In this document: one piece after another, positions 11,795-49,172 of the stretch | How positions within the stretch are numbered: position 1 is the stretch's first letter | Layout of the letters: each line of letters starts with the position of its first letter | NCBI GenBank assembly: GCA_937891325.1 | Contig: CALAFU010000170.1 | Span: 1-49,213, forward strand | Length of the DNA stretch: 49,213 bases | Source: an uncultured Candidatus Melainabacteria bacterium | Lineage (GTDB): Bacteria > Cyanobacteriota > Vampirovibrionia > Gastranaerophilales > Gastranaerophilaceae | Direction of reading: 5' to 3' | Translations under genes and position numbers: made by a program | The notes under the pieces: generated by a model | Seen by the model: only the letters and a program-made list of their open reading frames with translations | What the model was told of the DNA's origin: nothing | Database searches by the model: none

Positions 11795-11826
11795 AAACCG
11801 TATAGATATGATATCTATACGGTTTT
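11795..11826 (+). terminator. rho-independent terminator (32-nt perfect palindrome)
   Basis: AAAACCGTATAGATAT (11795-11810) pairs with ATATCTATACGGTTTT (11811-11826), then TGTT. TTGACA at 11780-11785 lies just upstream. Confidence 0.75.
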
Positions 11827-11860
11827 GTTATGCAACCCAATTATTGTAGGAGTAAAAACT

Positions 11861-17050: not shown

Positions 17051-17065
17051 AAGGTGGTGATAGGT

Positions 17066-20120: not shown

Positions 20121-20168
20121 ATCAAACATCCAACCAGTTGTCAACATCTAAATGAAAGGGAGAAAGAG

Positions 20169-21382: not shown

Positions 21383-21415
21383 ACTATAACATGAAAAAGA
21401 AAAGGAGTCAAGGAA

Positions 21416-21682
21416 ATGATAAAAGTAGGAGATATTCTCAAAGAGAAGGAAGATAGTGAACGATTAAGCATTATCACGAAGATTAAGAACGATGATAGTT
21501 TGATAGAAGTTCACATGATAGCTGAAGATGGAGAAGTTCGTATAATCACATATCTTGATGAAGACACCATGCAAGAAAGTATTGGCAGCAAGATTGTATC
21601 AGAAAACCAAAATGATACAGATTGGTTGTCGCGTATTGTTAATGTGTTCACAAAAGGTGAGCGAACATTGCAATCCATATAA
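21416..21682 (+). CDS. hypothetical protein (88 aa), weak tail
   Basis: AAGGAG-like RBS; ends FTKGERTLQSI-stop. Confidence 0.6.
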   Translation: MIKVGDILKEKEDSERLSIITKIKNDDSLIEVHMIAEDGEVRIITYLDEDTMQESIGSKIVSENQNDTDWLSRIVNVFTKGERTLQSI

Positions 21683-24785: not shown

Positions 24786-25448
24786 ATGATTAAATACTTT
24801 ATAACGCCGAATGTTCTGACGATGTTCATCAATGGCAAACAAATCTTTGTTCCGAGCAGCCATCTGAATTATGGAACAATGTGTAAAGTGTTAAAGGGGG
24901 GTTGTCAAGATGAAAAGGAAATCATGGCTTTAAATGACTTAAAGAATTGCATGTTGACAGAATTTCCAGATTTTGTTGAAGTTGCTGAAGATGGAAAATT
25001 GGTCTTAAAACATTGCCATGAAGTCAATATGGAAAAGTTCACAAAAGAAGCTTTACAATCGCAAAGAGATGGTAAAGATACGCAAGGTTTCTTTTGTTTG
25101 TTGATGAACATGAGTGAGAATAAAACGATTGGAGTTGCAGACTTTTTACAATGGTTAAAGAGTGGCAGCTGTCGATATACCATCAATGGTACAATCTTAA
25201 GCTACGGGTTTATTGATGATGGAGGTGTCTGTTTTTTGAAAGAAGCTGCAGATAAAAACACCAATGCAATTGTTGACATTAAACCGCAACTGCTTGAGAT
25301 GTATGTTAATAAAGATAACAAATGGACGTGTGTTCACAAAATCAAAGATGGCAGCTTTACGGTAATGTGGCAAGGAGAAAATAAAAACTTGCCGAACATT
25401 GATTCCTTCAACGTGTTTAGTGGTGATGGGTTGCTGGATTGTTTCTAA
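24786..25448 (+). CDS. rIIB: probable rIIB-like protein (short, 220 aa)
   Basis: Sits directly after rIIA. LTMFINGKQIFVPSSHLNYGTMCKVL and GFFCLLMNMSENKTIGVADFLQWLKSG..TINGTILSYGF resemble the T4 rIIB central blocks as I recall them. Ends SGDGLLDCF-stop, a weak tail. Confidence 0.55.
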   Translation: MIKYFITPNVLTMFINGKQIFVPSSHLNYGTMCKVLKGGCQDEKEIMALNDLKNCMLTEFPDFVEVAEDGKLVLKHCHEVNMEKFTKEALQSQRDGKDTQGFFCLLMNMSENKTIGVADFLQWLKSGSCRYTINGTILSYGFIDDGGVCFLKEAADKNTNAIVDIKPQLLEMYVNKDNKWTCVHKIKDGSFTVMWQGENKNLPNIDSFNVFSGDGLLDCF

Positions 25449-25465
25449 AGAGGAGTGAAAATGCA

Positions 25466-25894
25466 ATGGACGAAAAGACATTAAAAGAAATCGAACAACT
25501 CGACAATACGCAAGTGCTTGACGAGCTTGAAGATTTGAGAGTCAATAACCTTTATGATGACTTGCAAGAAATGTTGTATGCAATCTTTCCGTTGTATGCA
25601 ATTGTGTACAATGAAATTGTGGAAAAGTTTCGCATCATCATTCCGTATGAAAATGATGGCATTGCTACCAATGCAAATGATGAATTGGTGTATCAGTTAG
25701 CCTTGCAAGATGATACAGGTTTTGTGCGAACGATGATGTGGAATTTAGATGACCCTGTTGACAATGCAGAGTTTGTCAGAGGTGGAAGAAAACCGTTATT
25801 GCAGATTGTAAAGAAATGCAATAATTTTCTTGAAGCTGTGAACGCGCTGGCTGAAATCCAGAAAGACGGTGATAAACTGTTAAAGGAGGTGTAG
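25466..25894 (+). CDS. hypothetical protein (142 aa), weak tail
   Basis: Start moved to ATG 25466 behind GAGGAG; ends QKDGDKLLKEV-stop. Confidence 0.65.
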   Translation: MDEKTLKEIEQLDNTQVLDELEDLRVNNLYDDLQEMLYAIFPLYAIVYNEIVEKFRIIIPYENDGIATNANDELVYQLALQDDTGFVRTMMWNLDDPVDNAEFVRGGRKPLLQIVKKCNNFLEAVNALAEIQKDGDKLLKEV

Positions 25895-25902
25895 AGGTGA
25901 GA

Positions 25903-26262
25903 ATGAAAACAGGTGAGTTGCTGGAACATATCAAACGCATTTTAAAAGATGCTAATGGTGAGTCTTTTGGTGGCTATACTTTTCATCTTGATAAAATCAC
26001 CACTAAAGCAGATGAGTTAAGGAGTTTGTTTTCTGATGGTTTACAGTATGTATATGCTGTAGGCAAAAACATCAAAAACGAAGGTGGGGAAGATGAGGTT
26101 TATATAAAACAACGTGCATTGATCCGAATTGATCGAGATGTACTTGTTCGTATAGCCAAATTGACCAATAAAAATGTAAAGCTGCGAAAGATTGACGCTA
26201 AACAGCTTTACTATTATTTGGAGATGGCTGAAATAGGGGAAGCTGTCTTAAACAGTCTTTAA
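25903..26262 (+). CDS. hypothetical protein (119 aa), IG-x3-L-x2-L tail
   Basis: Start at ATG 25903 behind GGAGG; ends MAEIGEAVLNSL-stop. Confidence 0.65.
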   Translation: MKTGELLEHIKRILKDANGESFGGYTFHLDKITTKADELRSLFSDGLQYVYAVGKNIKNEGGEDEVYIKQRALIRIDRDVLVRIAKLTNKNVKLRKIDAKQLYYYLEMAEIGEAVLNSL

Positions 26263-26274
26263 GGAAGTGTACCA

Positions 26275-26658
26275 ATGACATGGAGCAGAGAAGAGATCAT
26301 TTCAAACATGCAAAGGTTGTTTGTTGATAAGACTATTGATGTCATTGGCGATAAACAACCTTTTCAAATTCAAGTTGCAAAGTCAGGTGGAAGTTTTGAT
26401 AAAAACAGCTTAAAGTCAAGTTGGAGTCGTGAGGGGAAGGATTATAAAATGTATGCTTTTTGCAGAACACCTTTTTCACACGGAAGCTTGACTTTAGTTT
26501 GTTTTGTCTTAACAAAGAAGCTCGCAAGACAGTTATCAAATTATTCAACAGGTGATTTGATAGCTACATTTTCTAAGTTTGATAACACTGTTAATCATAC
26601 AATGTATATCAGACTTGAATTGTTGTCAACAGGAAAACAGACATTAGTGGAGATATAA
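26275..26658 (+). CDS. hypothetical protein (127 aa), tail family
   Basis: Ends LLSTGKQTLVEI-stop. Confidence 0.65.
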   Translation: MTWSREEIISNMQRLFVDKTIDVIGDKQPFQIQVAKSGGSFDKNSLKSSWSREGKDYKMYAFCRTPFSHGSLTLVCFVLTKKLARQLSNYSTGDLIATFSKFDNTVNHTMYIRLELLSTGKQTLVEI

Positions 26659-38627: not shown

Positions 38628-38951
38628 ATGTTTAAAGACTTTAAAGACTTAATGCATCTACCTGGTTATATTGTAGATGTACTTAATAGAAAATGTGGTA
38701 ACCTCATCCATAAAGAATATATTGTATCCTTTCAATCTTTGTGTGAAATTCAAGATGATTATATCCTAGCGACATTTACTTTTCCTGATCAAAATAAATT
38801 TCTTTATTATGTTTATATTGATAAAGATATACTTGATATGTCAATTGATGTCTTGAATAGTGAGCACATTCAGTTCAAATATGAACAAAAAGGAAAAGAC
38901 AGATACTTGCATTTTATTGATATTGGTAACAATACATTGAGAAGGATTTAA
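38628..38951 (+). CDS. array member, IG-x3-L-x2-I tail family (107 aa)
   Basis: AAGGAG RBS; ends HFIDIGNNTLRRI-stop. Confidence 0.7.
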   Translation: MFKDFKDLMHLPGYIVDVLNRKCGNLIHKEYIVSFQSLCEIQDDYILATFTFPDQNKFLYYVYIDKDILDMSIDVLNSEHIQFKYEQKGKDRYLHFIDIGNNTLRRI

Positions 38952-38955
38952 TTTT

Positions 38956-39249
38956 ATGATATATAATAAAAGGTTGATTGATGTTTTAAACAAATATATC
39001 ATATCTCAAATAAGTGATAAACCGGCGCATTTCATTGATGGGTTCCATGAAAAAGATGATGGCTCAATTCAACTATTGTATCAATATAACGATGGTTCAG
39101 ATTATTTTTATGTTGTAAATGTTAATCCGGAGATTTTTAATATACCCCCGTCAGCATTAGATAATGATTGTCATCAGTTGACATATGATGAAAAAACATA
39201 TACTATAACTATAAAAGAAGTTGGTGATGCTGTTTTGAATAATGTGTAG
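38956..39249 (+). CDS. array member, tail family (97 aa)
   Basis: Ends TIKEVGDAVLNNV-stop. Confidence 0.7.
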   Translation: MIYNKRLIDVLNKYIISQISDKPAHFIDGFHEKDDGSIQLLYQYNDGSDYFYVVNVNPEIFNIPPSALDNDCHQLTYDEKTYTITIKEVGDAVLNNV

Positions 39250-39281
39250 CCAAAATTAATGTATGAAAGGTAGCTGTAACG

Positions 39282-39572
39282 ATGTCTATTTCGAGTTGGT
39301 TAGAAGCTATGACAGTGAAAGCGGCCTATTTAATCGAGCGTGAAAATGTCCGCTTTGTTGGATGGACTAATTCAAGTACAAACAAATATTGTCGGCTATA
39401 TTATCAATATGGACAATTTGAAACCTTTGATTATATTTTGGCGGATCCTTTAATAGCAAACCTTTCTGTTGAACAAATACTCAATGATGGCATTGTCTTT
39501 AAATTAATAAACTGTAAAGGTAACTTTCTTACTATTGAAGATATTGGTAAAAAAGTTTTGGGGAATATTTAG
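39282..39572 (+). CDS. array member, tail family (96 aa)
   Basis: Ends TIEDIGKKVLGNI-stop. Confidence 0.7.
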   Translation: MSISSWLEAMTVKAAYLIERENVRFVGWTNSSTNKYCRLYYQYGQFETFDYILADPLIANLSVEQILNDGIVFKLINCKGNFLTIEDIGKKVLGNI

Positions 39573-39583
39573 ATAGGAAGTTG

Positions 39584-39883
39584 ATGACTATGCGTATTGG
39601 TAATTTAGAAAGATTGTATATCTTAAATAAAAAAGCTTCCAATCTGATTCTTGATGATTGCAATGTTCATTTCGAAACTATCATGAACTATGATATTGAC
39701 TTTTGGGGTATTGCTTTTTCATATACAAAATATAACCATAAATATTCTGATACTATTTATCTTGATAAAGATATCATGAATGTTCCTGTTGATGTTTTGG
39801 TAAGTGATTCAACTACCTTTAAATTCGAAAATAATTATTTAAAGCTGTCTGATATAGGTAAAGAAACCCTTAACAATATTTGA
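39584..39883 (+). CDS. array member, tail family (99 aa)
   Basis: Start at ATG 39584 behind AGGAAG; ends KLSDIGKETLNNI-stop. Confidence 0.7.
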   Translation: MTMRIGNLERLYILNKKASNLILDDCNVHFETIMNYDIDFWGIAFSYTKYNHKYSDTIYLDKDIMNVPVDVLVSDSTTFKFENNYLKLSDIGKETLNNI

Positions 39884-39990
39884 CACACATTTTTACAACA
39901 ACTCAACTAAAAGTTGCTGTTCTATAGCATATACATTTTCGCCATTTTGGCATTTTTGATTTCAACAATAGGTTGTATATAAACACACTG

Positions 39991-40030
39991 AATCAAGTGA
40001 CATTTATGTTTTAGTGTCACTTGATTTGTT
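39991..40030. terminator. rho-independent terminator between convergent genes
   Basis: 12-bp stem AATCAAGTGACA (39991-40002) pairs with TGTCACTTGATT (40015-40026), followed by TGTTTT. Confidence 0.8.
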
Positions 40031-40040
40031 TTATCAAATT

Positions 40041-40751
40041 TTATTCACCGATTTTTCTTACAGGAACATCTAGACCTTGTTTCAAGGAAACAAGAAGGTA
40101 GTTTAAATTACCTTTAGTTAAATTGATGTCAGGCCAAATATCATATTCCTTTAACGGATAGTAGTTATGCAATGAAACCCATTTGTCAATTTTCTTGATG
40201 AATGTTGAGATTTGGAAAATGTCACGACACTCTTCTGTTAAACGGTCACCAGCATATTCAATCTTTTTCCATTCACTGATTACCTGTTCTTTTGTCTTCG
40301 TTAAAACATGTTTAGGAATCGTTACAATGACTTTATCATCACCGTCAGGAATATGTTCAGGTTTTTCATCAGCAATAATTGTAGCGTCTTTATTTTCATT
40401 TGTAGACGGTGTTGATTGAACTTTTTGCAATGTACTGTTTGTAGGAACTGTATCCGCAACTTTTGTCGTATGTGTCACAATATCATTCGTAATTGTTTCT
40501 GTGACTTTGCCTAATTTTAACGCTCTATATTCATCCCATCTTTTCTTTACTGCTGCACGGGCTTTATTGCTTTTATCCACTTGCTTCTGATTCTGTTTAT
40601 CAAGCATATATTTGATGACTACCCACGCTTTGCAATCTTCAACATTATATTCAGGATAAAAAAGAATTCCCTTCATAACTTCTGTCTGTTTTTCAGGCGG
40701 TAGTGTTGAGATGATATCTTTAAATTCAGGCTCAATTACGACTTTAAACAT
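40041..40751 (-). CDS. hypothetical protein (236 aa), the only long leftward gene
   Basis: AGGAG RBS 9 nt upstream on the minus strand and its own consensus promoter. Basic helical N-terminal third (KARAAVKKRWDEYRA), T/N-rich linker. Confidence 0.8.
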   Translation of the reverse strand: MFKVVIEPEFKDIISTLPPEKQTEVMKGILFYPEYNVEDCKAWVVIKYMLDKQNQKQVDKSNKARAAVKKRWDEYRALKLGKVTETITNDIVTHTTKVADTVPTNSTLQKVQSTPSTNENKDATIIADEKPEHIPDGDDKVIVTIPKHVLTKTKEQVISEWKKIEYAGDRLTEECRDIFQISTFIKKIDKWVSLHNYYPLKEYDIWPDINLTKGNLNYLLVSLKQGLDVPVRKIGE

Positions 40752-40796
40752 AAACGAATAGTCTCCTATATAGTTTAAATCTATTTAGATGCCTTC

Positions 40797-40825
40797 ATAT
40801 TATCCCTGTATTTCATTGTTGTCAA
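40797..40825 (-). promoter_or_regulatory. sigma70-type promoter (minus strand) for 40041..40751
   Basis: Read on the minus strand: TTGACA (40825-40820), 17-nt spacer, TAATAT (40802-40797). Confidence 0.65.
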
Positions 40826-40981
40826 TATCCATTTTTGTATTTGTATCACTTTTTTATTGTCTAACAAATCATTGTTTGTTTACATCAGATACGTTTCATA
40901 CATATGTATAAGTCGTATGGTTTCTAAATCTTCTATATAAGATTTATGTAGTTAAAGATAGTTTGTATAACTATTGTAAAC

Positions 40982-41008
40982 ATTCTACATATTCTACATT
41001 CTATACAT
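40982..41008. repeat. tandem 9-mer repeat, ATTCTACAT x2 + TCTATACAT
   Basis: Direct reading in the divergent control region. Confidence 0.7.
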
Positions 41009-41071
41009 TTTTTACGTTTGTATGTTTTGTATATAATGTACCTATTTTAAAGCTTTATACAACGAAAAATC

Positions 41072-41100
41072 TTGACAATACGTTGTTTATGTAATAAAGT
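41072..41100 (+). promoter_or_regulatory. possible sigma70-type promoter
   Basis: TTGACA (41072-41077), 17-nt spacer, TAAAGT (41095-41100). Confidence 0.45.
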
Positions 41101-41131
41101 AATATTTGTAAACTAATGGAAAGGAATAAGA

Positions 41132-41464
41132 ATGCCTATTTGTTATGTATGTGAATCAAGTCTAGCATTGCCGACAGGTGTGGCTACTGAAGAATGCAAT
41201 TTATCTATCCGTGAAGTTATCAATGAAGCTAAAGAAGTTGTAGTGACAGGAAAATATGTTTATACGATGTCACCATTCTTTCTTCAATCGTTGATTTTGT
41301 TTGCAGATAAAGAGGGTGTTTTGAATAATTGGAAATTTATATTATTGCATAACAATGGTACTAAAGAAGATAAAACTGAACATCGTGAAGAGTTGTTTGA
41401 AATGATGTCATCACCTTTAGATGAACTGTTTATGGTAACATATAAAGATGACCAAAACATATAA
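41132..41464 (+). CDS. hypothetical protein (110 aa), paralogue of the C-terminal domain of 32845..33348
   Basis: CYVCESSLALP..TEECNLSIREVI...YVYTMSPFFLQSLILFADKEGVLNNWKFILLHNNG. Confidence 0.65.
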   Translation: MPICYVCESSLALPTGVATEECNLSIREVINEAKEVVVTGKYVYTMSPFFLQSLILFADKEGVLNNWKFILLHNNGTKEDKTEHREELFEMMSSPLDELFMVTYKDDQNI

Positions 41465-41765
41465 AACAATCATTAACACTATTGTCAAGAAGATGAAAGG
41501 TTACGAATGGAAAGTTCGTGATACTGATGATTATAGTTTAAAGTTGTCTGGTAGTGTACAATCATTCGATATCATCGGTCCTATTATAAAGGTGTGGTGT
41601 TGTATTGTATATACATACAATAATCAACATGAACGAATCTATCAGCCTTTATCTTTTGAAAGGCAATGGTTGACTATTAAAGATATTGAGAATTATTCTT
41701 TTAAGATTGAAGGCTATAACTTTGTTTTAGAAGATATTGGTAACAGTATATTGACCAATCTATAA
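41448..41765 (+). CDS. array member, tail family (105 aa)
   Basis: Ends FVLEDIGNSILTNL-stop. Confidence 0.7.
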   Translation: MTKTYKTIINTIVKKMKGYEWKVRDTDDYSLKLSGSVQSFDIIGPIIKVWCCIVYTYNNQHERIYQPLSFERQWLTIKDIENYSFKIEGYNFVLEDIGNSILTNL

Positions 41766-41780
41766 AGAGAAAATCGAACT

Positions 41781-42185
41781 ATGATGTATACCCATCAAAC
41801 CAAAAAATTGAGTAATTTAAAAGGTTCACCGAATAGTCGTGCAGTATCTTGTGTTGGGTTTATCTTAAATAGATATGACAGACGACGCTTGAATAAACTG
41901 ATAAATATCTTTGGCAATAAACTAATTAGTGTCAAAAATGCTCTTTGCAGTCGAAACTTTTACATTGAAAAATGTATTCGCATATCATACTTTGAATATG
42001 ATTCTGAATATGTAGCAACCTTTAAGTGTACAGATAAAATAGTTTTGCAAGTCATTATCAAGGAAAATTTATTTAATGACTTGTTGAAATATAGAAATGA
42101 TTGTATTGATTTTGACATGTGTGATTATGACTTGTTTTATGTTAAGACTTTAGACATTGGCAATATGACATTGAAAGATATTTAA
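41781..42185 (+). CDS. array member, tail family, NRYDRRR subfamily (134 aa)
   Basis: GFILNRYDRRRLNKL near the N-terminus; ends KTLDIGNMTLKDI-stop. Confidence 0.7.
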   Translation: MMYTHQTKKLSNLKGSPNSRAVSCVGFILNRYDRRRLNKLINIFGNKLISVKNALCSRNFYIEKCIRISYFEYDSEYVATFKCTDKIVLQVIIKENLFNDLLKYRNDCIDFDMCDYDLFYVKTLDIGNMTLKDI

Positions 42186-42211
42186 TCAACAGCTATATAG
42201 GAAAGTTTATC

Positions 42212-42502
42212 ATGTCTACTTTAATTGTAGCCAATAAAATCATTAAGAATGTCGCTATAGTGAATAAACAAAAGAATAAGTTGTCTATCCGTATGCCAAC
42301 AAAAGATTCAAATTATTTTAAACATGATTTGCAATGTGTTAATATGAATGATAAAGCATTGTATGATGCATACAAAAGAAGTTGTGCATGTACATTGTAT
42401 ATTGATGATGAGGCTTTTCCTAATTGCATTGCTACGAACATTAGAAAGTCTAGATTAATTGGGCAACGTATTGTTACATTTGTGGTAGAGAATGATCTGT
42501 GA
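42212..42502 (+). CDS. hypothetical protein (96 aa), possibly a diverged array member
   Basis: AGGAAAG RBS. C-terminal ..SRLIGQRIVTFVVENDL has an IG-x3-V-x2-V element followed by 5 extra residues. Confidence 0.55.
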   Translation: MSTLIVANKIIKNVAIVNKQKNKLSIRMPTKDSNYFKHDLQCVNMNDKALYDAYKRSCACTLYIDDEAFPNCIATNIRKSRLIGQRIVTFVVENDL

Positions 42503-42539
42503 CAATGGTTATTTTATCGATGCATTTTAAAATTATGCA

Positions 42540-42917
42540 TTAAATGTTTTCTAAACAAGTTATCCCCGCATCTTTTGTTATAACTTTAATGACATTGTAA
42601 TCATCATCAGAAACTATTTGTATATCTGTTTTTTTAATGCTATCAAGTTTTTCTAATATATAATCACTGATAAACAAGTATTGTATCGAGTTGTTCACTT
42701 TATCATTTTGCAATGAATAGCATGAGCATTGAATAGGTGTAAAACCAATTATTTTTTCTTTTATATAACGATCGTCTTTTTTGCGCAACAACACTGATTC
42801 AATAAAGAAATGAATATGATGTTTGAAATGCTGAATTGTGGCATCAATATCAAATTGCATACCTTTTAATAAATCTGTGATAAGAATATCTGTATGATTT
42901 GGGCGAAGAATTGTCAT
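42540..42917 (-). CDS. array member (inverted), tail family (125 aa)
   Basis: Ends ITKDAGITCLENI-stop; has its own minus-strand promoter. Confidence 0.7.
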   Translation of the reverse strand: MTILRPNHTDILITDLLKGMQFDIDATIQHFKHHIHFFIESVLLRKKDDRYIKEKIIGFTPIQCSCYSLQNDKVNNSIQYLFISDYILEKLDSIKKTDIQIVSDDDYNVIKVITKDAGITCLENI

Positions 42918-42953
42918 GTGTGATTACTGTTAAACGTTGCTTTTGATGTAGCT

Positions 42954-42983
42954 ACTATAATCCAAACATATTCAAATTGTCAA
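42954..42983 (-). promoter_or_regulatory. sigma70-type promoter (minus strand)
   Basis: Read on the minus strand: TTGACA (42983-42978), 18-nt spacer, TATAGT (42959-42954). Confidence 0.6.
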
Positions 42984-42995
42984 TGTTTTTATATA

Positions 42996-43024
42996 TTGAC
43001 AAATGTCGTCTTTTATTATAGTAT
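42996..43024 (+). promoter_or_regulatory. sigma70-type promoter
   Basis: TTGACA (42996-43001), then TATAGT (43017-43022, 15-nt spacer) or TAGTAT (17-nt spacer). The ORF-track start at 42996 is this -35 box. Confidence 0.55.
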
Positions 43025-43052
43025 TGCTAATAAACTTAATAGGGTGAGTGAT

Positions 43053-43389
43053 ATGCTTGATGATACAGATGAATTGAATGCTTTTGCTGATAAGCTAGCA
43101 AAACATTTATCAACTATTAAAGAAAACGGAGTATCTGAATTTGAAGTCCTTCAATATGAAAAGGATAAAAGTTTTTAGTATTAACAAAAATACTGGACAA
43201 TATTGTTTAGTCAGTACATCACGTGAAATTTATATCCCTGAAACAACTTTTTGTGAATTGAATATTGATGATTTTGATATGTTGTATAAATATCAAGACA
43301 ATCTGAATGAATTAGATATTTATATTTATATGAATGATGCTACTATCAAAATTCGTGATATTGGTGAAACAACATTGAATAAACTTTAA
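43053..43389 (+). pseudogene. array member split by a +1 frameshift (paralogue of 47051..47377)
   Basis: Frame A gives MLDDTDELNAFADKLAKHLSTIKENGVSEFEVLQYEKDKSF-stop. Frame B gives SINKNTGQYCLV...IKIRDIGETTLNKL-stop. Together they are colinear with the intact 47051 ORF. The break lies at the T5 run 43172-43176. Confidence 0.6.
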
Positions 43390-43787
43390 ATGTTTTCAAG
43401 ACATACGGTACCAATGTCTTTTTCTTTTACTACATATACATTTATTTGTTTATTGAATTCAAGTTTAACTTGACCTCGCTTTAATTTAGAAACATGTGAC
43501 AACAATTTATTGTCAATATGAATTACATCAGTTAAATATATTGGTTCATCCATATCAGTAAACGATACGACATTTAAAAGAATCGGTGTCATATGCTCAT
43601 CTAATATATAGCTATTACTGTTGTCAAACTGTATTGTGGCTTTTTTAATATAAAACCTTTGCTTAAGATATTGACCACCTTGTAGTTTTAATATCTCATC
43701 AGTGTATGAGATACCTTGCAACAAATTTGTAAGCGTTGTATTTATATCATTATTATTATTATTATTATTATTATTAATCATAAACAA
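43386..43787 (-). CDS. array member (inverted), tail family, with N-terminal poly-Asn (133 aa)
   Basis: Starts MFMINNNNNNNNND; ends VKEKDIGTVCLENI-stop. Confidence 0.7.
   Translation of the reverse strand: MFMINNNNNNNNNDINTTLTNLLQGISYTDEILKLQGGQYLKQRFYIKKATIQFDNSNSYILDEHMTPILLNVVSFTDMDEPIYLTDVIHIDNKLLSHVSKLKRGQVKLEFNKQINVYVVKEKDIGTVCLENI
43749..43775. repeat. (ATT)9 trinucleotide microsatellite, encoding Asn9 on the minus strand
   Basis: Direct reading. Confidence 0.9.
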
Positions 43788-43851
43788 ACCTTAACCATTT
43801 ATCTGCTATTAGAAGATAGCAACTGTATCGTTTTCTGTCAACACAAAGTTA

Positions 43852-43879
43852 TTGATTGACAATTCTCTCATGATATAGT
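43852..43879 (+). promoter_or_regulatory. sigma70-type promoter with extended -10
   Basis: TTGATT (43852-43857), 16-nt spacer, TGaTATAGT (43871-43879). The upstream element CTGTCAACACAAA (43835-43847) recurs at 44286-44298. Confidence 0.55.
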
Positions 43880-43916
43880 AATTTAAAATTTAATGAAGAT
43901 TCTTAAGGAAATGATT

Positions 43917-44267
43917 ATGCAACCTTTAGGTTTTATGGAATTATCTAAAAAGCAAATTAAGCTATTGATTAGCAAATTGGATAAAGTCACTTTTCAGTGT
44001 GGTGATGATAGTTACAAATATGTTTGTCCACGTCCATGTTGCATTTTTGACACTGTAGAAGTAGTTAAAGATGATGACGATATTGTATGGTACTATATTG
44101 AAGTGAAAGCATTCTCTACCGTTAACAACTATATCTCTTTTAAAGGTTGTTGGATTAAACAAAAAGAATTCGAATATTTTCTAAAACATAAAATGAGTTT
44201 TCATATTGATAATTGCGATAAATTAGTTTTAGAAGATATTGGACAAACCACTTTAAACAATATTTGA
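43917..44267 (+). CDS. array member, tail family (116 aa)
   Basis: ATG 43917 has AAGGA 7 nt upstream; the in-frame ATG 43893 is an alternative. Ends VLEDIGQTTLNNI-stop. Confidence 0.65.
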   Translation: MQPLGFMELSKKQIKLLISKLDKVTFQCGDDSYKYVCPRPCCIFDTVEVVKDDDDIVWYYIEVKAFSTVNNYISFKGCWIKQKEFEYFLKHKMSFHIDNCDKLVLEDIGQTTLNNI

Positions 44268-44305
44268 TTATAACGAATTTATTGTCTGTCAACACAAACA
44301 CTGTA

Positions 44306-44332
44306 TTGACAATAATCATTTTATGGTATACT
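44306..44332 (+). promoter_or_regulatory. sigma70-type promoter with extended -10
   Basis: TTGACA (44306-44311), 15-nt spacer, TGgTATACT (44324-44332). Confidence 0.55.
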
Positions 44333-44381
44333 ATATACATATAAGTTATGAAAGAAAGGTTGGATGAGATGACAAATTGAG

Positions 44382-44732
44382 ATGACAAATCAGTTGGCAT
44401 TCACAGGTGCTTTTAAGTTATCAAAAGATAATAAAAGGTGTTTAATGAAAAAGTTGAACGGTATTATTGTTGACGATAACATTGTCAGATGTGAGCGCTT
44501 GCGTGATATGGAAACTCAAGTCTATACATATGAAGATAATAATAGCAACGAGTTTTATGATGTAGGTATTGCTGTAAATGGTTTAGATAATGTCTCTTTA
44601 GGTTTTAACTATTTACGAATGCCAGCAGAAGTTTTTAAAGCTGTTTTAAACAGAAATGTAAAGTTTCGTGTTAATAAAGATTGGACCGTTGATATTGAAG
44701 ATATTGGTCTTGCTGTTTTGAACGAGATTTAA
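44382..44732 (+). CDS. array member, tail family (116 aa)
   Basis: Ends DIEDIGLAVLNEI-stop. Preceded by a 13-nt tandem duplication that creates the mini-ORF ATG ACA AAT TGA. Confidence 0.65.
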   Translation: MTNQLAFTGAFKLSKDNKRCLMKKLNGIIVDDNIVRCERLRDMETQVYTYEDNNSNEFYDVGIAVNGLDNVSLGFNYLRMPAEVFKAVLNRNVKFRVNKDWTVDIEDIGLAVLNEI

Positions 44733-44734
44733 CC

Positions 44735-45103
44735 ATGCAATATGATAGTAAGTTGACCAAAAAAGAACGTGTTTGCATTGCAAAAAACATTCGCGGTTTA
44801 AAGTTCAGTGAAAGCTATTTTGATTACCAAGAAGGATGTGAACGTGATGTTGTATACAGTCTTGATAACATTACTGAAAAAAGTATTGGTACATCATATC
44901 AACCACCGTTTACAGATGATGATTGTGTAATGTTTGATGTGACTTGTGAAGTTGTTGGTGATGACAAACAGTTTCGTCGAATCTCTGTATTTGCTGAACC
45001 TGATTTGTTTGATAGAATGAAAAAGAAAGAAGTGTATGTAACAATCAATGGATATGTGTTTTATGAATGTGACATTGGTAATAAAGTATTGAACGATGTC
45101 TAA
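44735..45103 (+). CDS. array member, tail family (122 aa)
   Basis: Ends YECDIGNKVLNDV-stop. Confidence 0.7.
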   Translation: MQYDSKLTKKERVCIAKNIRGLKFSESYFDYQEGCERDVVYSLDNITEKSIGTSYQPPFTDDDCVMFDVTCEVVGDDKQFRRISVFAEPDLFDRMKKKEVYVTINGYVFYECDIGNKVLNDV

Positions 45104-45479
45104 AATATGTTTCAAAAAGCTGTATGATCAGGAACCTGATTCAACCGGTATTGTACATACTAAAAGCTTTATAGGTAATCGTTTTGATAGACGAAGAATG
45201 AAGAAGCTTAAGAAGTATCTTTTATCATCTACGTTCAACACAAAATTTCTTTCTAATTTTAAACCAGACAATGTTTTTGGTATAATGTATGATAAAATTG
45301 ACAACATATTTCTATTGGGCTTTGAGAAAGATGATGTATATTTCTTTTTAATGATTAAAAAAGATTTGTATGATGCCTTTCTTAATTGTAATGAAAAAGA
45401 TTTATATATTGATTTTAATGGGGAAAATTTTATTTTAAATGTACATTCTATTGGGAGTGTGTGTATGAATGACATCTAA
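45096..45479 (+). CDS. array member, tail family, NRYDRRR subfamily (127 aa)
   Basis: SFIGNRFDRRRMKKL; ends NVHSIGSVCMNDI-stop. The start overlaps the upstream tail codons. Confidence 0.7.
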   Translation: MSKICFKKLYDQEPDSTGIVHTKSFIGNRFDRRRMKKLKKYLLSSTFNTKFLSNFKPDNVFGIMYDKIDNIFLLGFEKDDVYFFLMIKKDLYDAFLNCNEKDLYIDFNGENFILNVHSIGSVCMNDI

Positions 45480-45813
45480 AGTAAAACATATATCATTTGA
45501 GCAAAAAGTAAAATGGTTACGTAATTTCTTTTGTGAAAAAACATTTATCATATTTAATACTATTAACAACACATATGAAACGGTTGTATGCACAAAGCTT
45601 GATAGCATTGTTAATACTGAAAAAGATTATGTGGCAATATATGATAGCAATAATAATCCATATTCTTTTTGGCACATTCATGTTGATGTTGATACTTTTA
45701 ATATGATAATGTCAATTGACAATAATAGGTTTAAGGTTAAGTTTGCAGGTCGTCATAGTAATCTTCGATTATATATTACAGATATTGGTGAGAGTTGCAT
45801 GAATGAATTGTGA
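45469..45813 (+). CDS. array member, tail family (114 aa)
   Basis: Ends YITDIGESCMNEL-stop; 11-nt overlap with the upstream gene. Confidence 0.7.
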   Translation: MTSKVKHISFEQKVKWLRNFFCEKTFIIFNTINNTYETVVCTKLDSIVNTEKDYVAIYDSNNNPYSFWHIHVDVDTFNMIMSIDNNRFKVKFAGRHSNLRLYITDIGESCMNEL

Positions 45814-46177
45814 TAAAGTACGAATGTGCAATAACATTGATAAATTAAATAGTTGGCTACAGGGTCAAGGATTAATCATATATAATGAATTCACCAATAC
45901 TTATGAACATATCAGACATTTAAAAGTGGTTGACAATGACATTGAAAACAAATTGAATAAAGACCATAAATTTGTTGAATTATCATGTACAGGAAAAATA
46001 AATGTCTATACTGTATTTGAAGATGTTTTTTTAAGCTTGATAGTAAAGAAACAGTTGCTTGAACAGCTTGATAAATTTGATAGCAGTCTTTTTAAAATAA
46101 AAGATATAACACACTACAAACATGCGATTTATTTTGATGTTGAAGATTGTGGTAATGTATGTTTAAATAGTATTTAA
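45803..46177 (+). CDS. array member, tail family (124 aa)
   Basis: Ends DVEDCGNVCLNSI-stop; 11-nt overlap with the upstream gene. Confidence 0.7.
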   Translation: MNCDKVRMCNNIDKLNSWLQGQGLIIYNEFTNTYEHIRHLKVVDNDIENKLNKDHKFVELSCTGKINVYTVFEDVFLSLIVKKQLLEQLDKFDSSLFKIKDITHYKHAIYFDVEDCGNVCLNSI

Positions 46178-46197
46178 TATGAAAGAAGGTAATCAAT

Positions 46198-46530
46198 ATG
46201 ATATTGTCGAAGAAAGATAGAATCATTTTAGCAAAAGCGTTTAACGAAAAGACGTTTACTGATGGTGATTATTCATATACTGTTGAAACAATATCATATA
46301 AAGATGTTGGTGAAGTTTGTGACGACGCTATTATTAATGGTATTGATTATTGTGTCATTGAGGTATTATGTAAAGTTAGATGTAAGTGCAAAACTATCAA
46401 GTCACATTTTGGTTTGTTAATAAAGAAAGATTATTTGAGTTATATTTTAAGCAATCATGTAAAAGTGTATATTGATAGCTTTGTAGTTTATATTGCTGAT
46501 TCAGGTAATGTCGTTTTGAATTCACTTTAA
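46198..46530 (+). CDS. array member, tail family (110 aa)
   Basis: GAAGG RBS; ends YIADSGNVVLNSL-stop. Confidence 0.7.
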   Translation: MILSKKDRIILAKAFNEKTFTDGDYSYTVETISYKDVGEVCDDAIINGIDYCVIEVLCKVRCKCKTIKSHFGLLIKKDYLSYILSNHVKVYIDSFVVYIADSGNVVLNSL

Positions 46531-46547
46531 TATGAGCAGGATAAACA

Positions 46548-46982
46548 TTGAAAAAAAGAATAGGACACAATTGCCAATCATTTAAAAAGTTATCAGAACA
46601 AACAGACGATTGGGTGTATTCAACAATCTTTTTGGGCAACCGTTATGAAAGAAGAAGATTAACATTTCTGATTTCATTACTGTTTGGTAATTATGCAAAC
46701 AAACCTGTCATTTATGATCATATAAAGAAAGAAGTTTTAATTCCAGAATGCCTTTATATAATAACATATAATAATTCCAGCAAAACATATTTTTTTAATA
46801 TAAAATATAAAAACCATAAAGCAAATAGCAATTGTTGTAATGTAGTTGTTTCTAAAGATTTATGGGATGAGATGATTCATTTAAAAAACAAATTTATGGA
46901 TTTATGTTTTGAAATTGATAAAAATAATGTTGTCCATATAGTAAAACAACATGCAGGTTACTCATGTTTGAATAGTATTTAA
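46548..46982 (+). CDS. array member, tail family, NRYDRRR subfamily (144 aa; start uncertain)
   Basis: IFLGNRYERRRLTFLISLLF; ends KQHAGYSCLNSI-stop. The only in-frame start is TTG. A well-placed ATG at 46532 is out of frame by one base across the A7 run 46551-46557. Confidence 0.6.
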   Translation: MKKRIGHNCQSFKKLSEQTDDWVYSTIFLGNRYERRRLTFLISLLFGNYANKPVIYDHIKKEVLIPECLYIITYNNSSKTYFFNIKYKNHKANSNCCNVVVSKDLWDEMIHLKNKFMDLCFEIDKNNVVHIVKQHAGYSCLNSI

Positions 46983-46988
46983 AAGCAG

Positions 46989-47017
46989 TTGACATCTGTT
47001 GTTTGTTATTGTAATAT
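46989..47017 (+). promoter_or_regulatory. sigma70-type promoter
   Basis: TTGACA (46989-46994), 17-nt spacer, TAATAT (47012-47017). Confidence 0.6.
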
Positions 47018-47050
47018 ATTTAATATGATCAATGGGAAAATGTGATTGAA

Positions 47051-47377
47051 ATGAAGTTAACTAATAAACAATTGAAAGCTTTTGCTGATAAGTTGTCCAG
47101 ACATTTATCCAAATGTAAAGAGAATTGGATATCTGAAAATGCGTTTATTGAGTATATAAAAGAAGATAACTTCATTGATGTTGTTAATGGTAATTATCGA
47201 TTGATGACAACGTGTCGTGTACAATATCTTCCAGAAATAGAATATTGTATTTTAGGCATTGATGATTTTGATGTGTTGTATAAATATAGAAACAAGCTTA
47301 ATCAGCTAGATGTCTATATTGCCGATGAAACGATTAAAGTTAGATCAATTGGTCAGATAACATTAAACGAACTGTAG
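47051..47377 (+). CDS. array member, tail family (108 aa)
   Basis: Start at ATG 47051; ends KVRSIGQITLNEL-stop. Intact paralogue of the split gene at 43053. Confidence 0.7.
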   Translation: MKLTNKQLKAFADKLSRHLSKCKENWISENAFIEYIKEDNFIDVVNGNYRLMTTCRVQYLPEIEYCILGIDDFDVLYKYRNKLNQLDVYIADETIKVRSIGQITLNEL

Positions 47378-47378
47378 A

Positions 47379-47870
47379 ATGTTGTTTAGGACAGGTTTAG
47401 CAATGACCAATAAAATAGGCTTTAAAAGGATAAAAGGTTTTAAAAAGAAAAAGCGACGTAATTGTAAGTCTCTTAAAAAGATGTCTGAACAACATGCTAA
47501 TTCACTAGGTTGGATGCATTCAACAATCTTTTTAGGTAACCGTTACGATAGAAGACGGTTGTCATTTCTAATATCATTGTTATTCGATTGTATTCAAGGA
47601 AAGTCTGTTTTATACGATTCGAGTAGTTCGCAAATCTTAACACCTGAAAAGATCACAAACGTTTCATATAACGCAATCGAGAAACAATATTATTTTCAAA
47701 TTCAATGTGTTGGTTATCATTATGTCCTTTTGATTATTTCACAAAAGTTGTGGCATGAATTGACTCATTTAAAAAACAAATATAGTGATTTAAAATATGA
47801 AACTGATGATATAGGTAACGAACATTTAGAAAAGCGTCAAATTGGGGAAGCGTGTTTAGGTAACATATAA
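47379..47870 (+). CDS. array member, tail family, NRYDRRR subfamily (163 aa)
   Basis: Basic N-terminus KRIKGFKKKKRRNCKSLKKMSEQ, then IFLGNRYDRRRLSFLISLLF; ends KRQIGEACLGNI-stop. Confidence 0.7.
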   Translation: MLFRTGLAMTNKIGFKRIKGFKKKKRRNCKSLKKMSEQHANSLGWMHSTIFLGNRYDRRRLSFLISLLFDCIQGKSVLYDSSSSQILTPEKITNVSYNAIEKQYYFQIQCVGYHYVLLIISQKLWHELTHLKNKYSDLKYETDDIGNEHLEKRQIGEACLGNI

Positions 47871-47975
47871 ATAAATTTTTATATAAAATCATATAAATAT
47901 TCCTTGTATCTTTATTAAAAAGATGATGTCTAAATCTATAGGGTATTACTATCATGAGAGAGATATTTAAAAAGG

Positions 47976-48350
47976 TTGTTGAGAAAAATAGGTTTTGTAA
48001 AAAGATTTTTATTAAATCGTTATGACAGGCGTCGGTGTAATAAAATTAGAAAAGCGTTTGTAGGAAGAAAAACTGAAGCGTACAATGTAGGTAATGAACA
48101 ATATGAAAATTTAACAATTGACGATGTGTATTTGCTTTACTATAACAGAAACCTTAATCAATACAGTTTTGTTTTTACATTCTCAAACGGTCACAGCACA
48201 ACAGTCTTTTTGGATGGAACATTATATGATAACTTGAAACATGTTGATAGCAAACAGTTAGGAACGGTGGTTGTTCTTTTACATTCAGATCGTTTCGAAC
48301 AGTACATTGTTTTAAATGATGTCGGAAACACCTGTTTAAAAGAGATTTAA
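47976..48350 (+). CDS. array member, tail family, NRYDRRR subfamily (124 aa; start uncertain)
   Basis: RFLLNRYDRRRCNKI; ends VLNDVGNTCLKEI-stop. TTG start. The ATG at 47954 is out of frame by one base across the A5 run 47969-47973. Confidence 0.6.
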   Translation: MLRKIGFVKRFLLNRYDRRRCNKIRKAFVGRKTEAYNVGNEQYENLTIDDVYLLYYNRNLNQYSFVFTFSNGHSTTVFLDGTLYDNLKHVDSKQLGTVVVLLHSDRFEQYIVLNDVGNTCLKEI

Positions 48351-48440
48351 ATTTTGATATCTTTTAAAGTTAAATATTTTATACATAGGGTGTTGTAAGG
48401 TATGATATATTTTGCTTAACAATCAGAAAGATGTTTTGAG

Positions 48441-48794
48441 ATGATTGAAGATGGTATTAATGGTATTATAAAGAAAGTGTCCGATTGGTTTGTAGGTCGA
48501 ACGGTTAATATACCTGATTGCAACAAAACTTTAACGATTCATGTGAATGAGTTTATTCCTTCAGATACATTCCTTCAGTTTGATGGTCTTTATTTACATT
48601 TTTATGGTAAAGATATAAACAATAATGAAGAGAAAATTCGTTTAATTTTGTTTGTTGATATAGATCTTTTTGATGCTGTAGGATCAACAAACAGTAAATT
48701 CTTTAGGTGTTCAAAGAGATTTGTTGCTTTTTTAGGCTATAGACTTTTCTTTGAGCTCGCTGATTTAAATGAAGAGTGTCTTGAAAGTATTTGA
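48441..48794 (+). CDS. array member, tail family variant (117 aa)
   Basis: Ends FELADLNEECLESI-stop, with N in place of the conserved G. Confidence 0.65.
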   Translation: MIEDGINGIIKKVSDWFVGRTVNIPDCNKTLTIHVNEFIPSDTFLQFDGLYLHFYGKDINNNEEKIRLILFVDIDLFDAVGSTNSKFFRCSKRFVAFLGYRLFFELADLNEECLESI

Positions 48795-48806
48795 AAAGGT
48801 TATTCT

Positions 48807-49172
48807 ATGCAGTTTAAACATACTAATAAGGACATTATTGATAAATGTGAAGCTATCCTTTTAAAGGTTGTAAACATTAATGATATTCATTATAGTAATG
48901 ACATGTTTTCAGCCGGGAGAATTTCAACGATATCTGATCCACCGTATAGAAAAAAAGAAAAAGGTATATATTTGTTTGTAAATGCAACAAGACATTCAAC
49001 AAATAAAAAAGATTCAGTGTTGTGTATTTACGTTTGTAACGAGTTATTAGAACTAGACAAACAAGAAATAATCAATAAACAATTTAAAATTGAGAATATA
49101 AAGAGTAACTTGTTAAATTATTTGAATGTTTTCGAAATTGATATTGGTGAATCTGTTTTGGAATCTTTTTAA
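48807..49172 (+). CDS. array member, tail family (121 aa)
   Basis: Ends VFEIDIGESVLESF-stop. Confidence 0.7.
   Translation: MQFKHTNKDIIDKCEAILLKVVNINDIHYSNDMFSAGRISTISDPPYRKKEKGIYLFVNATRHSTNKKDSVLCIYVCNELLELDKQEIINKQFKIENIKSNLLNYLNVFEIDIGESVLESF

Follow-up and report, generated by a model that had tools for sequence, protein, structure and literature searches.

An eight-residue C-terminal ending shared by many small proteins in a segment of an uncultured jumbo-phage genome

The window analysed here, a stretch of 49,213 nucleotides (contig CALAFU010000170.1), carries at 38.6–49.2 kb an array of small genes whose products end in nearly the same residues. An earlier, sequence-only reading had described these genes as a family of that interval. 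We describe the shared ending, hereafter the tail, as an eight-residue element, Gly-x-x-hydrophobic-Leu-x-x-Ile/Leu/Val, placed directly at the stop codon and closing ~40% of the genes of the window.

Results

Genes of the array and their common ending

The open reading frame (ORF) listing over 38.0–49.2 kb contains all 22 tail ORFs of the sequence-only reading (20 on the plus strand, 2 on the minus; 82–163 amino acids (aa)) with the endings that it quoted (Table 1). One member, 48441–48794 (...DLNEECLESI), has Asn in Gly's place. Three ORFs of the interval are tail-less: 40041–40751(-), 41132–41464 and 42212–42502. As had been supposed, the window ends inside the array, which continues in the full contig with six further tail genes.

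The ORF 43141–43389, previously counted as a gene of its own, proves to be the 3′ part of a frameshifted gene, 42996–43389. An intact orthologue in the related lineage L002 aligns to 43068–43172 in one frame and to 43195–43386 in another. The first 60 aa of the gene are thus read in a different frame from the 82 aa that carry the tail; the L002 orthologue has 117 aa from its ATG within a 124-codon open frame, and close strains (L004–L007) have a similarly short 52-aa gene call at this site. The split could represent a pseudogene, a programmed frameshift or an assembly error common to the strains.

Contrary to the original interval, the tail is spread over most of the window, in several clusters of small genes of which the array is the largest. 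Taking a greedy non-overlapping gene set for the whole window (103 genes), the pattern G-x3-[LMIV]-x2-[ILVFM]-stop closes 39 genes, against ~0.3 expected from its internal rate of 0.0031 per residue. Seventeen of the 39 sit at 2.9–32.8 kb, and near-variants close two more genes, 15831–16436 (...EIGNLTFSSI) and the Asn-bearing 48441–48794. Pooling the window with six related loci (seven non-redundant loci, 345 genes) gives 137 tails directly at the stop, where 1.08 would be expected; the background in 25 unrelated viral contigs is 3 of 247. Residue shuffles of the region's ORFs yield a mean of 0.0025 motif hits (21–23 observed).

Position relative to the stop is fixed. All 39 window tails lie at offset 0 and none at 1–3, and the pooled counts at offsets 0, 1, 2 and 3 are 137, 1, 0 and 0. 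The last residue is I, L, V, F or M in 137/137 tails, partly by definition of the search pattern. Among orthologue pairs, C-terminal length differs in 0 of 32 that bear the tail versus 5 of 17 that lack it (Fisher p ~0.003). From the offset counts and this constant length, the chain end itself seems to belong to the conserved feature.

Nucleotide sequence is far less constant. Over the 39 tails the Gly is encoded by GGT (23), GGA (8), GGG (6) or GGC (1), the Leu position by TTA (16), TTG (14), CTT (5) or CTG (1), and the terminal residue by ATT, CTT, ATA, ATC, GTG and others; the 40 nt 3′ of the stop codons show no common sequence. Given these mixed synonymous codons and the unconserved downstream DNA, conservation is at the protein level, in line with the earlier argument against a DNA repeat. 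Among the non-array tails, residues that played no part in selection carry information (1.0 bit at -6 (E/D/Q), 1.1 at -4 (L/T/V/C) and 0.6 at -1 (E/S/D)), and these tails are therefore not chance pattern matches; tail-less genes have ~0 bits at every C-terminal position.

Relatedness of the tail proteins

A profile hidden Markov model (HMM) of the last 60 residues, tail included, recovers all 22 array members plus 25897–26262 and 31733–32083; iteration across the window and the related loci raises this to 85 hits, with zero reversed-sequence decoys. Removing the last nine residues leaves only 2–4 of the 22 above the best decoy in a leave-one-out test, so the 60-residue signal is mostly tail. 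Body-only BLASTP of 40 tail proteins returns 31 singletons and 9 linked proteins, in groups of five (41781, 45096, 46548, 47379 and 47976, sharing NR[YF][DE]RRR), two (38628/39581) and two (43141/47042). The group of five has strongly basic N-termini (net charge up to +13) with the conserved motif [FL]-x-x-N-R-[YF]-[DE]-R-R-R-[LMC], and further copies occur in relatives (P0010, P0011, P0014, P0017, P0019 and P0022). This N-terminus may serve as a functional head on the same tail, for binding nucleic acid or for some other role.

The weaker upstream block described by the sequence-only reading is real, if faint. A leave-one-out 9-mer position-specific scoring matrix (PSSM) ranks it first in 17 of 24 proteins, in each case 38–48 residues before the C-terminus, and it is individually significant (p<0.05 versus shuffles) in 10 of the 24; the combined p is 1e-9, and none of 25 tail-less controls scores. 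Applied to 16 other tail-bearers, the same matrix places the block at the right distance in 30982 and 31359 only, and marginally in 30574; it is absent from 12 of these 16.

We accordingly sort the tail proteins into two classes. Class A (domain plus tail) comprises the 22 array genes and 25897, 30574, 30982, 31359 and 31733; its conserved ending reaches back to -13, as phi-x-phi-x-D-I-G-[NE]-x-[VCT]-L-N-x-[ILV] (phi, hydrophobic). Class B (tail only, 56–233 aa) comprises 2917, 7801, 8686, 14578, 15831, 16445, 17054, 21395, 24786, 25439, 26275, 29133, 30224 and 32478. We read the array proteins as extremely diverged paralogues with a common C-terminal module of ~50 residues (strand, short helix, β-hairpin and terminal two-turn helix), the case for common descent being built on their tandem order, their comparable size and a single faint additional block. 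The earlier description as paralogues has some backing in the upstream block, which is significant in combination for the array plus about five other proteins, and is overstated for the bodies, where BLASTP links only 9 of 40 proteins and a body HMM 2–4 of 22. Since the tail also closes bodies that are not detectably related, across the window and the clade, we replace 'gene family' by 'shared C-terminal tag'.

Conservation across a phage clade

The exact proteins of the window recur on contigs of 312–314 kb, for example CACUWL010000001.1 (GCA_902725505.1; 313,492 bp), which identifies the source as an uncultured jumbo phage of ~313 kb, present in many metagenomes. A homologue of rIIA, a T4-type early function, lies in the window, and the earlier suspicion of a large phage is borne out. 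Other window genes encode a MoxR AAA_5 ATPase, a DUF2201 protein, an EcoRI-like methyltransferase and a GmrSD-HNH nuclease.

Array-region relatives L001, L002 and L003 (~57% identity for one array protein) carry tails in 23/49, 33/50 and 18/24 genes. Around rIIA, six sampled relatives all have the gene order of the window. Tails close 12/39 genes in L012 (rIIA identity 75%), where all 12 non-array tails are kept, 11/36 in L014 (55%), 7/34 in L015 (48%; plus Gly-less variants), 20/39 in L016 (42%), 15/47 in L017 (38%) and 21/42 in L044 (34%). The Gly-containing tail is found in 0/20 genes of Cronobacter phage S13 and in 0/36 genes of L045, a more distant jumbo phage (rIIA 33%, different synteny). 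L045, the whole 22 kb locus on a 181 kb contig (ERZ28593764 scaffold_6) with a true rIIB by Pfam, has an ending of its own, [SPT]-N-[TS]-E-x-phi-phi-x-x-L-x-stop, in ~13 of 36 genes; its hydrophobic spacing is that of the window tail plus one residue.

Profile–profile comparison of the window array with the L044 array aligns only the last 17 columns. The unit conserved clade-wide is therefore a strand, a turn and a short helix running to the chain end.

The tail-bearing gene just 3′ of rIIA, 24786–25448, retains its tail in 5 of 6 related lineages sampled. Its similarity to rIIB is at best marginal (PHROG 609, E 6e-5, weak; BLASTP against T4 rIIB, E 0.07; no match in Pfam; 220 aa against 312 aa in T4), and T4 rIIB, which ends ...EDVTEQFK, does not have the tail.

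Searches for known relatives

The tail matches no known family or fold in the libraries searched, and the earlier failure to recognise the family is upheld. Pfam gave nothing above curated cut-offs for 30 tail proteins, PHROGs a single 0.007 hit for 20 (besides the weak rIIB hit of 24786–25448), and NCBIfam a single, non-significant hit (0.0047) for 25; profile A1 had no hit at E<=1 among PDB sequences. Searched with a profile, a set of 1.84 billion representative proteins returned 21 at E<=1e-3, all from this lineage, and every one of the 21 matches runs to the matched protein's own C-terminus.

Megablast of the array against cultured phages found no match, and tblastn of two non-array tail proteins and one L045 protein against the same collection found nothing, or noise. 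IMG/VR, queried with the rIIA homologue and a back-translated tail pattern, yielded no relatives and single chance hits only. Rfam and tRNA searches of the whole window were empty, and literature searches on phage C-terminal tags and degrons, jumbo-phage paralogue families and DUF2201 turned up no account of the tail.

Predicted structure of an array protein

AlphaFold2 was run on 45469–45813 with a 25-sequence paralogue alignment, giving a mean predicted local distance difference test score (pLDDT) of 86.2 and a predicted template-modelling score of 0.72. The model opens with a helix (10–21) and strands at 24–30, 35–49, 53–60 and 63–73, followed by a helix at 74–78 (the upstream block), strands 88–92 and 98–103, and a helix at 106–113 that starts at the Gly. 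The tail is thus modelled as a terminal two-turn helix after a β-hairpin, with a mean pLDDT of 82 for residues 101–110 and 65 for 111–114.

Foldseek with this model found weak OB/HIN/Tudor-like hits only in the PDB (best E 0.19, template-modelling (TM) score ~0.35), and in BFVD a best E of 0.011 at TM 0.27. We considered an LSm, OB or Tudor fold for the array proteins and rejected it, these scores being far too weak. A hydrophobic-moment test upstream of the tail did not distinguish strand from helix, even for the modelled protein. The tail proteins contain no 19-residue window with mean hydropathy >1.45 and so look soluble.

Selection, turnover and expression

The ratio of non-synonymous to synonymous substitution rates (dN/dS) was computed over 20 array orthologue pairs, window versus L001/L002, at 30–68% amino-acid identity with dS near 1. 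It is 0.25 in the last nine codons, 0.31 in the preceding 20 and 0.26 in the rest, so each array gene is individually constrained by purifying selection. Positive selection or rapid diversification between orthologues is rejected at this depth. What survives of the earlier 'rapidly diversifying' label is turnover: array gene content differs among related lineages, and broken copies occur.

Consensus promoters had been ascribed to many single genes or gene pairs. Promoter-like sites show no overall enrichment (80 found, 81.9 expected), and most array genes are packed at spacings of -17 to +32 nt. Six perfect TTGACA sites (17–18 nt spacer) do stand in the intergenic 13% of the region, co-oriented and heading gene blocks, and the array is probably a handful of operon-like blocks, which host RNA polymerase would read. 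Strong GGAGG ribosome-binding sites, TTGACA/TATAAT-type sites, frequent TTG/GTG starts and a G+C content of 26–42% together suggest a low-GC host with classical sigma-70 promoters.

Discussion

We tentatively read the tail as a handle for recognition or docking, anchored at the chain end and carried by a large and diverse set of early effectors or adaptors, a proposal that we place slightly short of probable. It is prompted by the >100-fold enrichment, the lock to the stop codon, conservation across the clade amid divergence, and presence on proteins without the second block. In this scheme the products, all finishing (hydrophobic strand)-x-[D/N]-hydrophobic-G-[E/N/D/Q]-x-[V/C/T/L]-L-x-x-[I/L/V]-COOH, would offer an invariant docking peptide that is recognised along with the free C-terminus, and the tail would bring the variable bodies to one common partner, a phage or host hub; the tail proteins would form a large adaptor or effector set at work early in infection. 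The partner that reads the tail, the early expression and the role in host takeover or anti-defence are all things that we infer.

Two phage-encoded readers may be proposed by conjecture. The putative MoxR-type ATPase and DUF2201 genes are syntenic in all five relatives that reach far enough upstream (L014–L017 and L044). The gene directly after the pair ends on the tail pattern or a close variant (for example ...VGEFLMEML). The other candidate lies downstream of the window, where the array is interrupted by an ankyrin-repeat gene and a 165–172-aa gene on the opposite strand; ankyrin repeats being peptide-binding modules, its product might read the tail. The ankyrin-repeat gene (289 aa) and its companion stand inside the array on the opposite strand in every lineage examined (L004 11897–13302; L001, L002), the L004 interval falling ~3–4.5 kb beyond the window end. 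Concerted shifts of the tail in whole lineages were examined as a sign of co-evolution with a reader and discarded, since non-array orthologues keep their own tails and the shifts look like lineage-specific expansions.

Several points weigh against a docking handle. The sequence read covers ~70 kb of a 313 kb genome; it includes no clamp gene, and the capsid genes fall outside it. 'Unrelated' bodies are bodies whose relatedness is undetectable by sequence, which does not imply different folds; the one class-B model, for 25466–25891 from a 3-sequence alignment, has a pLDDT of 46.6 and is unusable for such a claim. Small phage proteins can diverge until their kinship is lost to view, and all tail-bearers could descend from one ancestor. 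In the single confident model the four hydrophobic positions of the tail helix could pack on the protein's own sheet as a structural cap, and a tail helix placed right after the hairpin is equally compatible with that role. The tail flavours of individual lineages, which lineage-specific expansions can explain, are no evidence of reader co-evolution.

The main alternative is a structural keystone, in which one small α/β fold has diverged beyond recognition and the ending closes its hydrophobic core with no common reader; the terminal carboxylate would perhaps sit in an internal salt bridge, and each protein would act through its own surface. We consider this rather unlikely, though it deserves serious weight. 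It accounts well for the tandem arrangement and uniform size of the array genes, for the second block that array members keep at a fixed distance from the end and for the fit of hydrophobic positions -8, -4, -3 and 0 to one face of a short helix, and T4 early proteins with a common fold but dissimilar sequences provide precedent (PMC12152347). It sits poorly with ~12 tail-bearers of 95–233 aa that lack the second block, with distant arrays that align over 17 residues only, and with a tail conserved far better than any other core element; nor would a purely structural helix usually hold its C-terminal length without variation in 137 proteins when 5 of 17 tail-less pairs vary. An explanation below the protein level, by chance, a DNA repeat or a nucleotide signal (ribosome-binding site, promoter or terminator), merits almost no credence. 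The last codons of some non-array genes (for example AAG GAG GTG) do overlap the next gene's Shine–Dalgarno sequence, yet array tails (AAT AAT ATT) do not resemble one, the Gly codon 21–24 nt before the stop is too far upstream for a ribosome-binding site, and the tail persists where convergent genes leave no cistron downstream. Shuffling gives 0.0025 hits against >21, megablast of the region against the phage collection is empty, which speaks against a known DNA element, and the mixed synonymous codons at the Gly, Leu and Ile positions exclude DNA-level, ribosome-binding-site and chance origins.

Timed destruction would be a special case of the tag. As a C-terminal degron, the tail would mark early proteins for timed removal by a host protease that reads C-termini (ClpXP, Lon, FtsH or Prc type) or by the phage MoxR/VWA-metallopeptidase pair; we judge this very unlikely. 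Known C-terminal degrons, like PDZ-type ligands, are end-located with a hydrophobic last residue, and the tail is strictly end-locked and likewise hydrophobic at its end, although no resemblance to the ssrA tag or to any other known degron was seen, and the model makes the tail a helix joined to a hairpin and not a disordered end. The MoxR AAA_5 and DUF2201 (HEAMH) genes lie in the same region and are syntenic in related tail-bearing lineages, while sampling around rIIA in the two phages without Gly-containing tails showed neither gene, and an M16 peptidase gene follows the array; the co-occurrence nevertheless amounts to a single phylogenetic event. Independent acquisition on dozens of genes seems costly, too. 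MoxR AAA+/VWA pairs figure in two reports as chaperones that remodel specific client proteins, not as proteases (PMC9976466, PMC13036017). NorQ–NorD, RavA–ViaA and CbbQ–CbbO are such systems, and the window likewise has an AAA_5 MoxR gene beside one for a VWA-domain protein; the likeness is limited in that only synteny within one clade ties the pair to the tails and the metallopeptidase-like DUF2201_N domain is uncharacterised.

Highly improbable, in our estimate, is another special case of the tag, an address for loading, by which the tail would target proteins into the capsid, for injection into the next host, or into another phage-built compartment. Jumbo phages package many internal proteins, and a short C-terminal peptide with a Gly and three spaced hydrophobic residues, on many unrelated cargo-like proteins, resembles in kind the C-terminal cargo-loading peptides that bind the HK97-fold shells of encapsulins. 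The encapsulin consensus differs, however; genes beside rIIA behind sigma-70-like sites suggest early expression and not late co-expression with the capsid; and we know of no precedent for >45 different small cargo proteins.

Among known systems, the docking handle has its closest counterpart in the clamp-binding tails of T4, where short hydrophobic peptides, lying at the C-terminus or close to it, dock several unrelated proteins to one hub. T4 gp43 ends ...ASLDFLFG and gp55 ...SLDFLYEAND, and gp33 also carries a clamp-binding tail. The differences are plain: the T4 motif, SLDFL[FY], has no Gly and other spacing, gp55 is not strictly end-locked, and the T4 clamp has three or four clients where >40 tails occur here per 70 kb. 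By motif and number we do not class the window tail, with G at -7, L at -3 and no S-L-D-F-L pattern, as a T4-type clamp tail. Encapsulin peptides, peroxisomal targeting signals of type 1, ssrA-type degrons and PDZ ligands offer what we take to be a comparable arrangement, a terminal peptide on unrelated bodies with the chain end as part of the signal. None of these motifs is known to match the window tail, and we know of none at proteome scale in a phage. The encapsulin cargo peptide, a Gly-containing hydrophobic C-terminal peptide on unrelated proteins, is similar in kind only, its consensus being different.

A further parallel is offered by the poxvirus ankyrin/PRANC (F-box-like) genes, which stand in tandem in large viruses, turn over fast and join a variable target-binding body to an invariant C-terminal element for docking to a single host hub. 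PRANC itself, ~30–40 residues long, is a domain that binds eukaryotic Skp1, whereas the constant element here spans 8–17 residues in a bacterial virus, so that only the logic is alike. The T4 early regions and the SPO1 host-takeover module likewise gather many small ORFan genes near early functions behind host-type promoters. They differ in having no known common terminal motif, and our model has no neighbour of Sm/Hfq or any other fold, whereas T4 GoF, MotB.1 and Frd.2 adopt an LSm-like fold without sequence similarity (PMC12152347).

Taken further, the docking handle would become a private, proteome-scale address system, with >100 early proteins per clade bearing the end-locked tag and one phage-encoded machine as reader, for which the MoxR/DUF2201 pair would be the first candidate and the ankyrin-repeat protein a second. 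Effectors, or host targets held by the variable bodies, would be loaded, delivered or destroyed on schedule, and the L045 ending would be a diverged version of the same principle. We regard this extension as quite unlikely.

Were the tail a tag, its reader (a hub, protease, chaperone or compartment) would be new and central to the infection programme of a widespread uncultured jumbo-phage clade. We know of no phage that marks so large a share of its proteome (~40% of genes over at least 70 kb) with one C-terminal signal. A simple sequence rule would then pick out the effector repertoire of the clade, the eight residues would provide a portable handle for pull-downs and engineering, and the array would serve as a model of how dozens of fast-turnover takeover or anti-defence proteins are organised round one constant interface. 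Even if the tail is a keystone only, the array would represent a new fold family and show that paralogues can diverge while one motif stays.

Other features of the locus

Positions of the tail genes, of the candidate reader genes and of the promoter- and terminator-like elements are collected in Table 1.

Table 1 Tail-bearing genes and associated features of the window
Feature	Position	Strand	Basis or remark
Array gene, 107 aa, end FIDIGNNTLRRI	38628..38951	+	body paralogue of 39581-39883
Array gene, 97 aa, end IKEVGDAVLNNV	38956..39249	+	ORF listing, upstream-block PSSM
Array gene, 96 aa, end IEDIGKKVLGNI	39282..39572	+	ORF listing
Array gene, 100 aa, end LSDIGKETLNNI	39581..39883	+	ORF listing, body BLASTP, PSSM
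Array gene, 105 aa, end LEDIGNSILTNL	41448..41765	+	ORF listing
Array gene, 134 aa, end TLDIGNMTLKDI	41781..42185	+	N-terminal NRYDRRR subgroup
Array gene, 125 aa, end TKDAGITCLENI	42540..42917	-	own intergenic promoter-like site 42954-42983(-)
Array gene with frameshift between ~43172 and 43195	42996..43389	+	paralogue of 47042-47377
Tail-bearing 3′ part of frameshifted gene 42996-43389, end IRDIGETTLNKL	43141-43389	+	
Array gene, 133 aa, end EKDIGTVCLENI	43386..43787	-	convergent with gene 42996-43389, overlapping stop codons
Array gene, 124 aa, end LEDIGQTTLNNI	43893..44267	+	ORF listing
Array gene, 116 aa, end IEDIGLAVLNEI	44382..44732	+	opens tightly packed block after promoter-like site 44306-44334
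Array gene, 122 aa, end ECDIGNKVLNDV	44735..45103	+	ORF listing, PSSM
Array gene, 127 aa, end VHSIGSVCMNDI	45096..45479	+	NRFDRRR subgroup
Array gene, 114 aa, end ITDIGESCMNEL	45469..45813	+	modelled member, pLDDT 86.2, tail modelled as helix 106-113
Array gene, 124 aa, end VEDCGNVCLNSI	45803..46177	+	ORF listing, PSSM
Array gene, 110 aa, end IADSGNVVLNSL	46198..46530	+	ORF listing
Array gene, 144 aa, end KQHAGYSCLNSI	46548..46982	+	NRYERRR subgroup
Array gene, 111 aa, end VRSIGQITLNEL	47042..47377	+	promoter-like site 46989-47017 upstream
Array gene, 163 aa, end KRQIGEACLGNI	47379..47870	+	NRYDRRR subgroup, basic N-terminus (net charge +13)
Array gene, 124 aa, end LNDVGNTCLKEI	47976..48350	+	NRYDRRR subgroup
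Array gene, 117 aa, end ADLNEECLESI (Asn for Gly)	48441..48794	+	strong upstream block
Array gene, 121 aa, end EIDIGESVLESF	48807..49172	+	last complete gene of the window; array continues after
Same domain family outside array, 121 aa, end AEIGEAVLNSL	25897..26262	+	HMM, PSSM
Probable family member, 112 aa, end INVGQKALKDL	30574..30912	+	upstream block at -43 (p=0.07)
Family member, 119 aa, end RSIGDVVLHEI	30982..31341	+	upstream block at -46 (p=0.01)
Family member, 125 aa, end KALGQFVLESL	31359..31736	+	upstream block at -45 (p=0.024)
Family member, 116 aa, end PNIGETTLNKI	31733..32083	+	HMM, PSSM
Tail-only protein, 128 aa, end TNIGSSLLKDI	2917..3303	+	
Possible tail-only protein, 56 aa (gene call of related contigs), end GACFINEL (Ile at -3), weakest case	7801..7971	+	
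Tail-only protein, 233 aa, end NENKGERLLREI	8686..9387	+	
Tail-only protein, 179 aa, end MNVGEFLMEML	14578..15117	+	directly after MoxR/DUF2201 pair, position kept in relatives
Variant tail, 201 aa, end EIGNLTFSSI (Phe at -3)	15831..16436	+	kept in L012 and L014
Tail-only protein, 201 aa, end RTVGSDCLFEI	16445..17050	+	
Tail-only protein, 153 aa, end NNDGQGLLDTI	17054..17515	+	
Tail-only protein (stop-to-stop frame, ~87-95 aa), end FTKGERTLQSI	21395..21682	+	
Tail-bearing protein in rIIB position just 3′ of rIIA, 220 aa, end FSGDGLLDCF	24786..25448	+	weak PHROG rIIB hit
Tail-only protein (probable start 25466, 142 aa), end QKDGDKLLKEV	25439..25894	+	
Tail-only by PSSM test, 127 aa, end LSTGKQTLVEI	26275..26658	+	
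Tail-only protein, 105 aa, end IPIGDLCLEGV	29133..29450	+	
Tail-only protein, 112 aa, end HGDGAVVLSTM	30224..30562	+	
Tail-only by PSSM test, 116 aa, end KRIGEQTLCGI	32478..32828	+	
MoxR-type AAA+ ATPase (AAA_5)	11825..13168	+	context only; candidate reader, conjecture
DUF2201_N putative metallopeptidase (HEAMH motif) with VWA-like domain	13230..14522	+	context only; candidate reader, conjecture
Promoter-like site TTGACA-N17-TAATAT	40797..40825	-	intergenic, upstream of 40041-40751(-)
Promoter-like site TTGACA-N17-TAAAGT	41072..41100	+	intergenic, heads block 41132-42502
Promoter-like site TTGACA-N18-TATAGT	42954..42983	-	intergenic, upstream of 42540-42917(-)
Promoter-like site TTGACA-N17-TATCTT	43813..43841	-	intergenic, upstream of 43386-43787(-)
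Promoter-like site TTGACA-N17-TACTAT	44306..44334	+	intergenic, heads block 44382-46982
Promoter-like site TTGACA-N17-TAATAT	46989..47017	+	intergenic, heads block from 47042
Terminator-like 16-bp hairpin with T-run	39989..40028	+	between convergent 39581-39883(+) and 40041-40751(-)

Duplication in the region is not limited to tail genes, since the tail-less 41132–41464 has a paralogue in 32845–33348, a 167-aa Cys-rich protein encoded 8 kb upstream, whose C-terminal two-thirds it matches at 42% identity (E 2e-24). Beyond the window the array terminates at a Pnkp/RNA-ligase gene and an M16 peptidase gene, both tail-less. Upstream of the window lie four minus-strand genes with a Gly-less ending, Y-x-D-V-L-[ND]-x-[IL]. 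In L008 they occupy 2155–5357 on the minus strand, 10 kb upstream of the window, and end YTDVLNEL, YNDVLNTI, YTDVLDEI and YIDVLNEI, three of them being ~170-aa paralogues.

At 18926–21335 an EcoRI-like adenine methyltransferase gene adjoins one for a GmrSD-N/HNH nuclease (93% identical in L012); the L012 version of the methyltransferase is split or rearranged. The phage thereby carries genes of a defence or counter-defence type. The segment 3700–6200 is an ORF-free 2.5 kb of 26–30% G+C, with short tandem repeats of TTGTGGA (x4, 5085–5112) and of ATGTA type (4034–4078) and a structured-looking part at ~5150–5700; right after it, gene content differs between L008 and L009.

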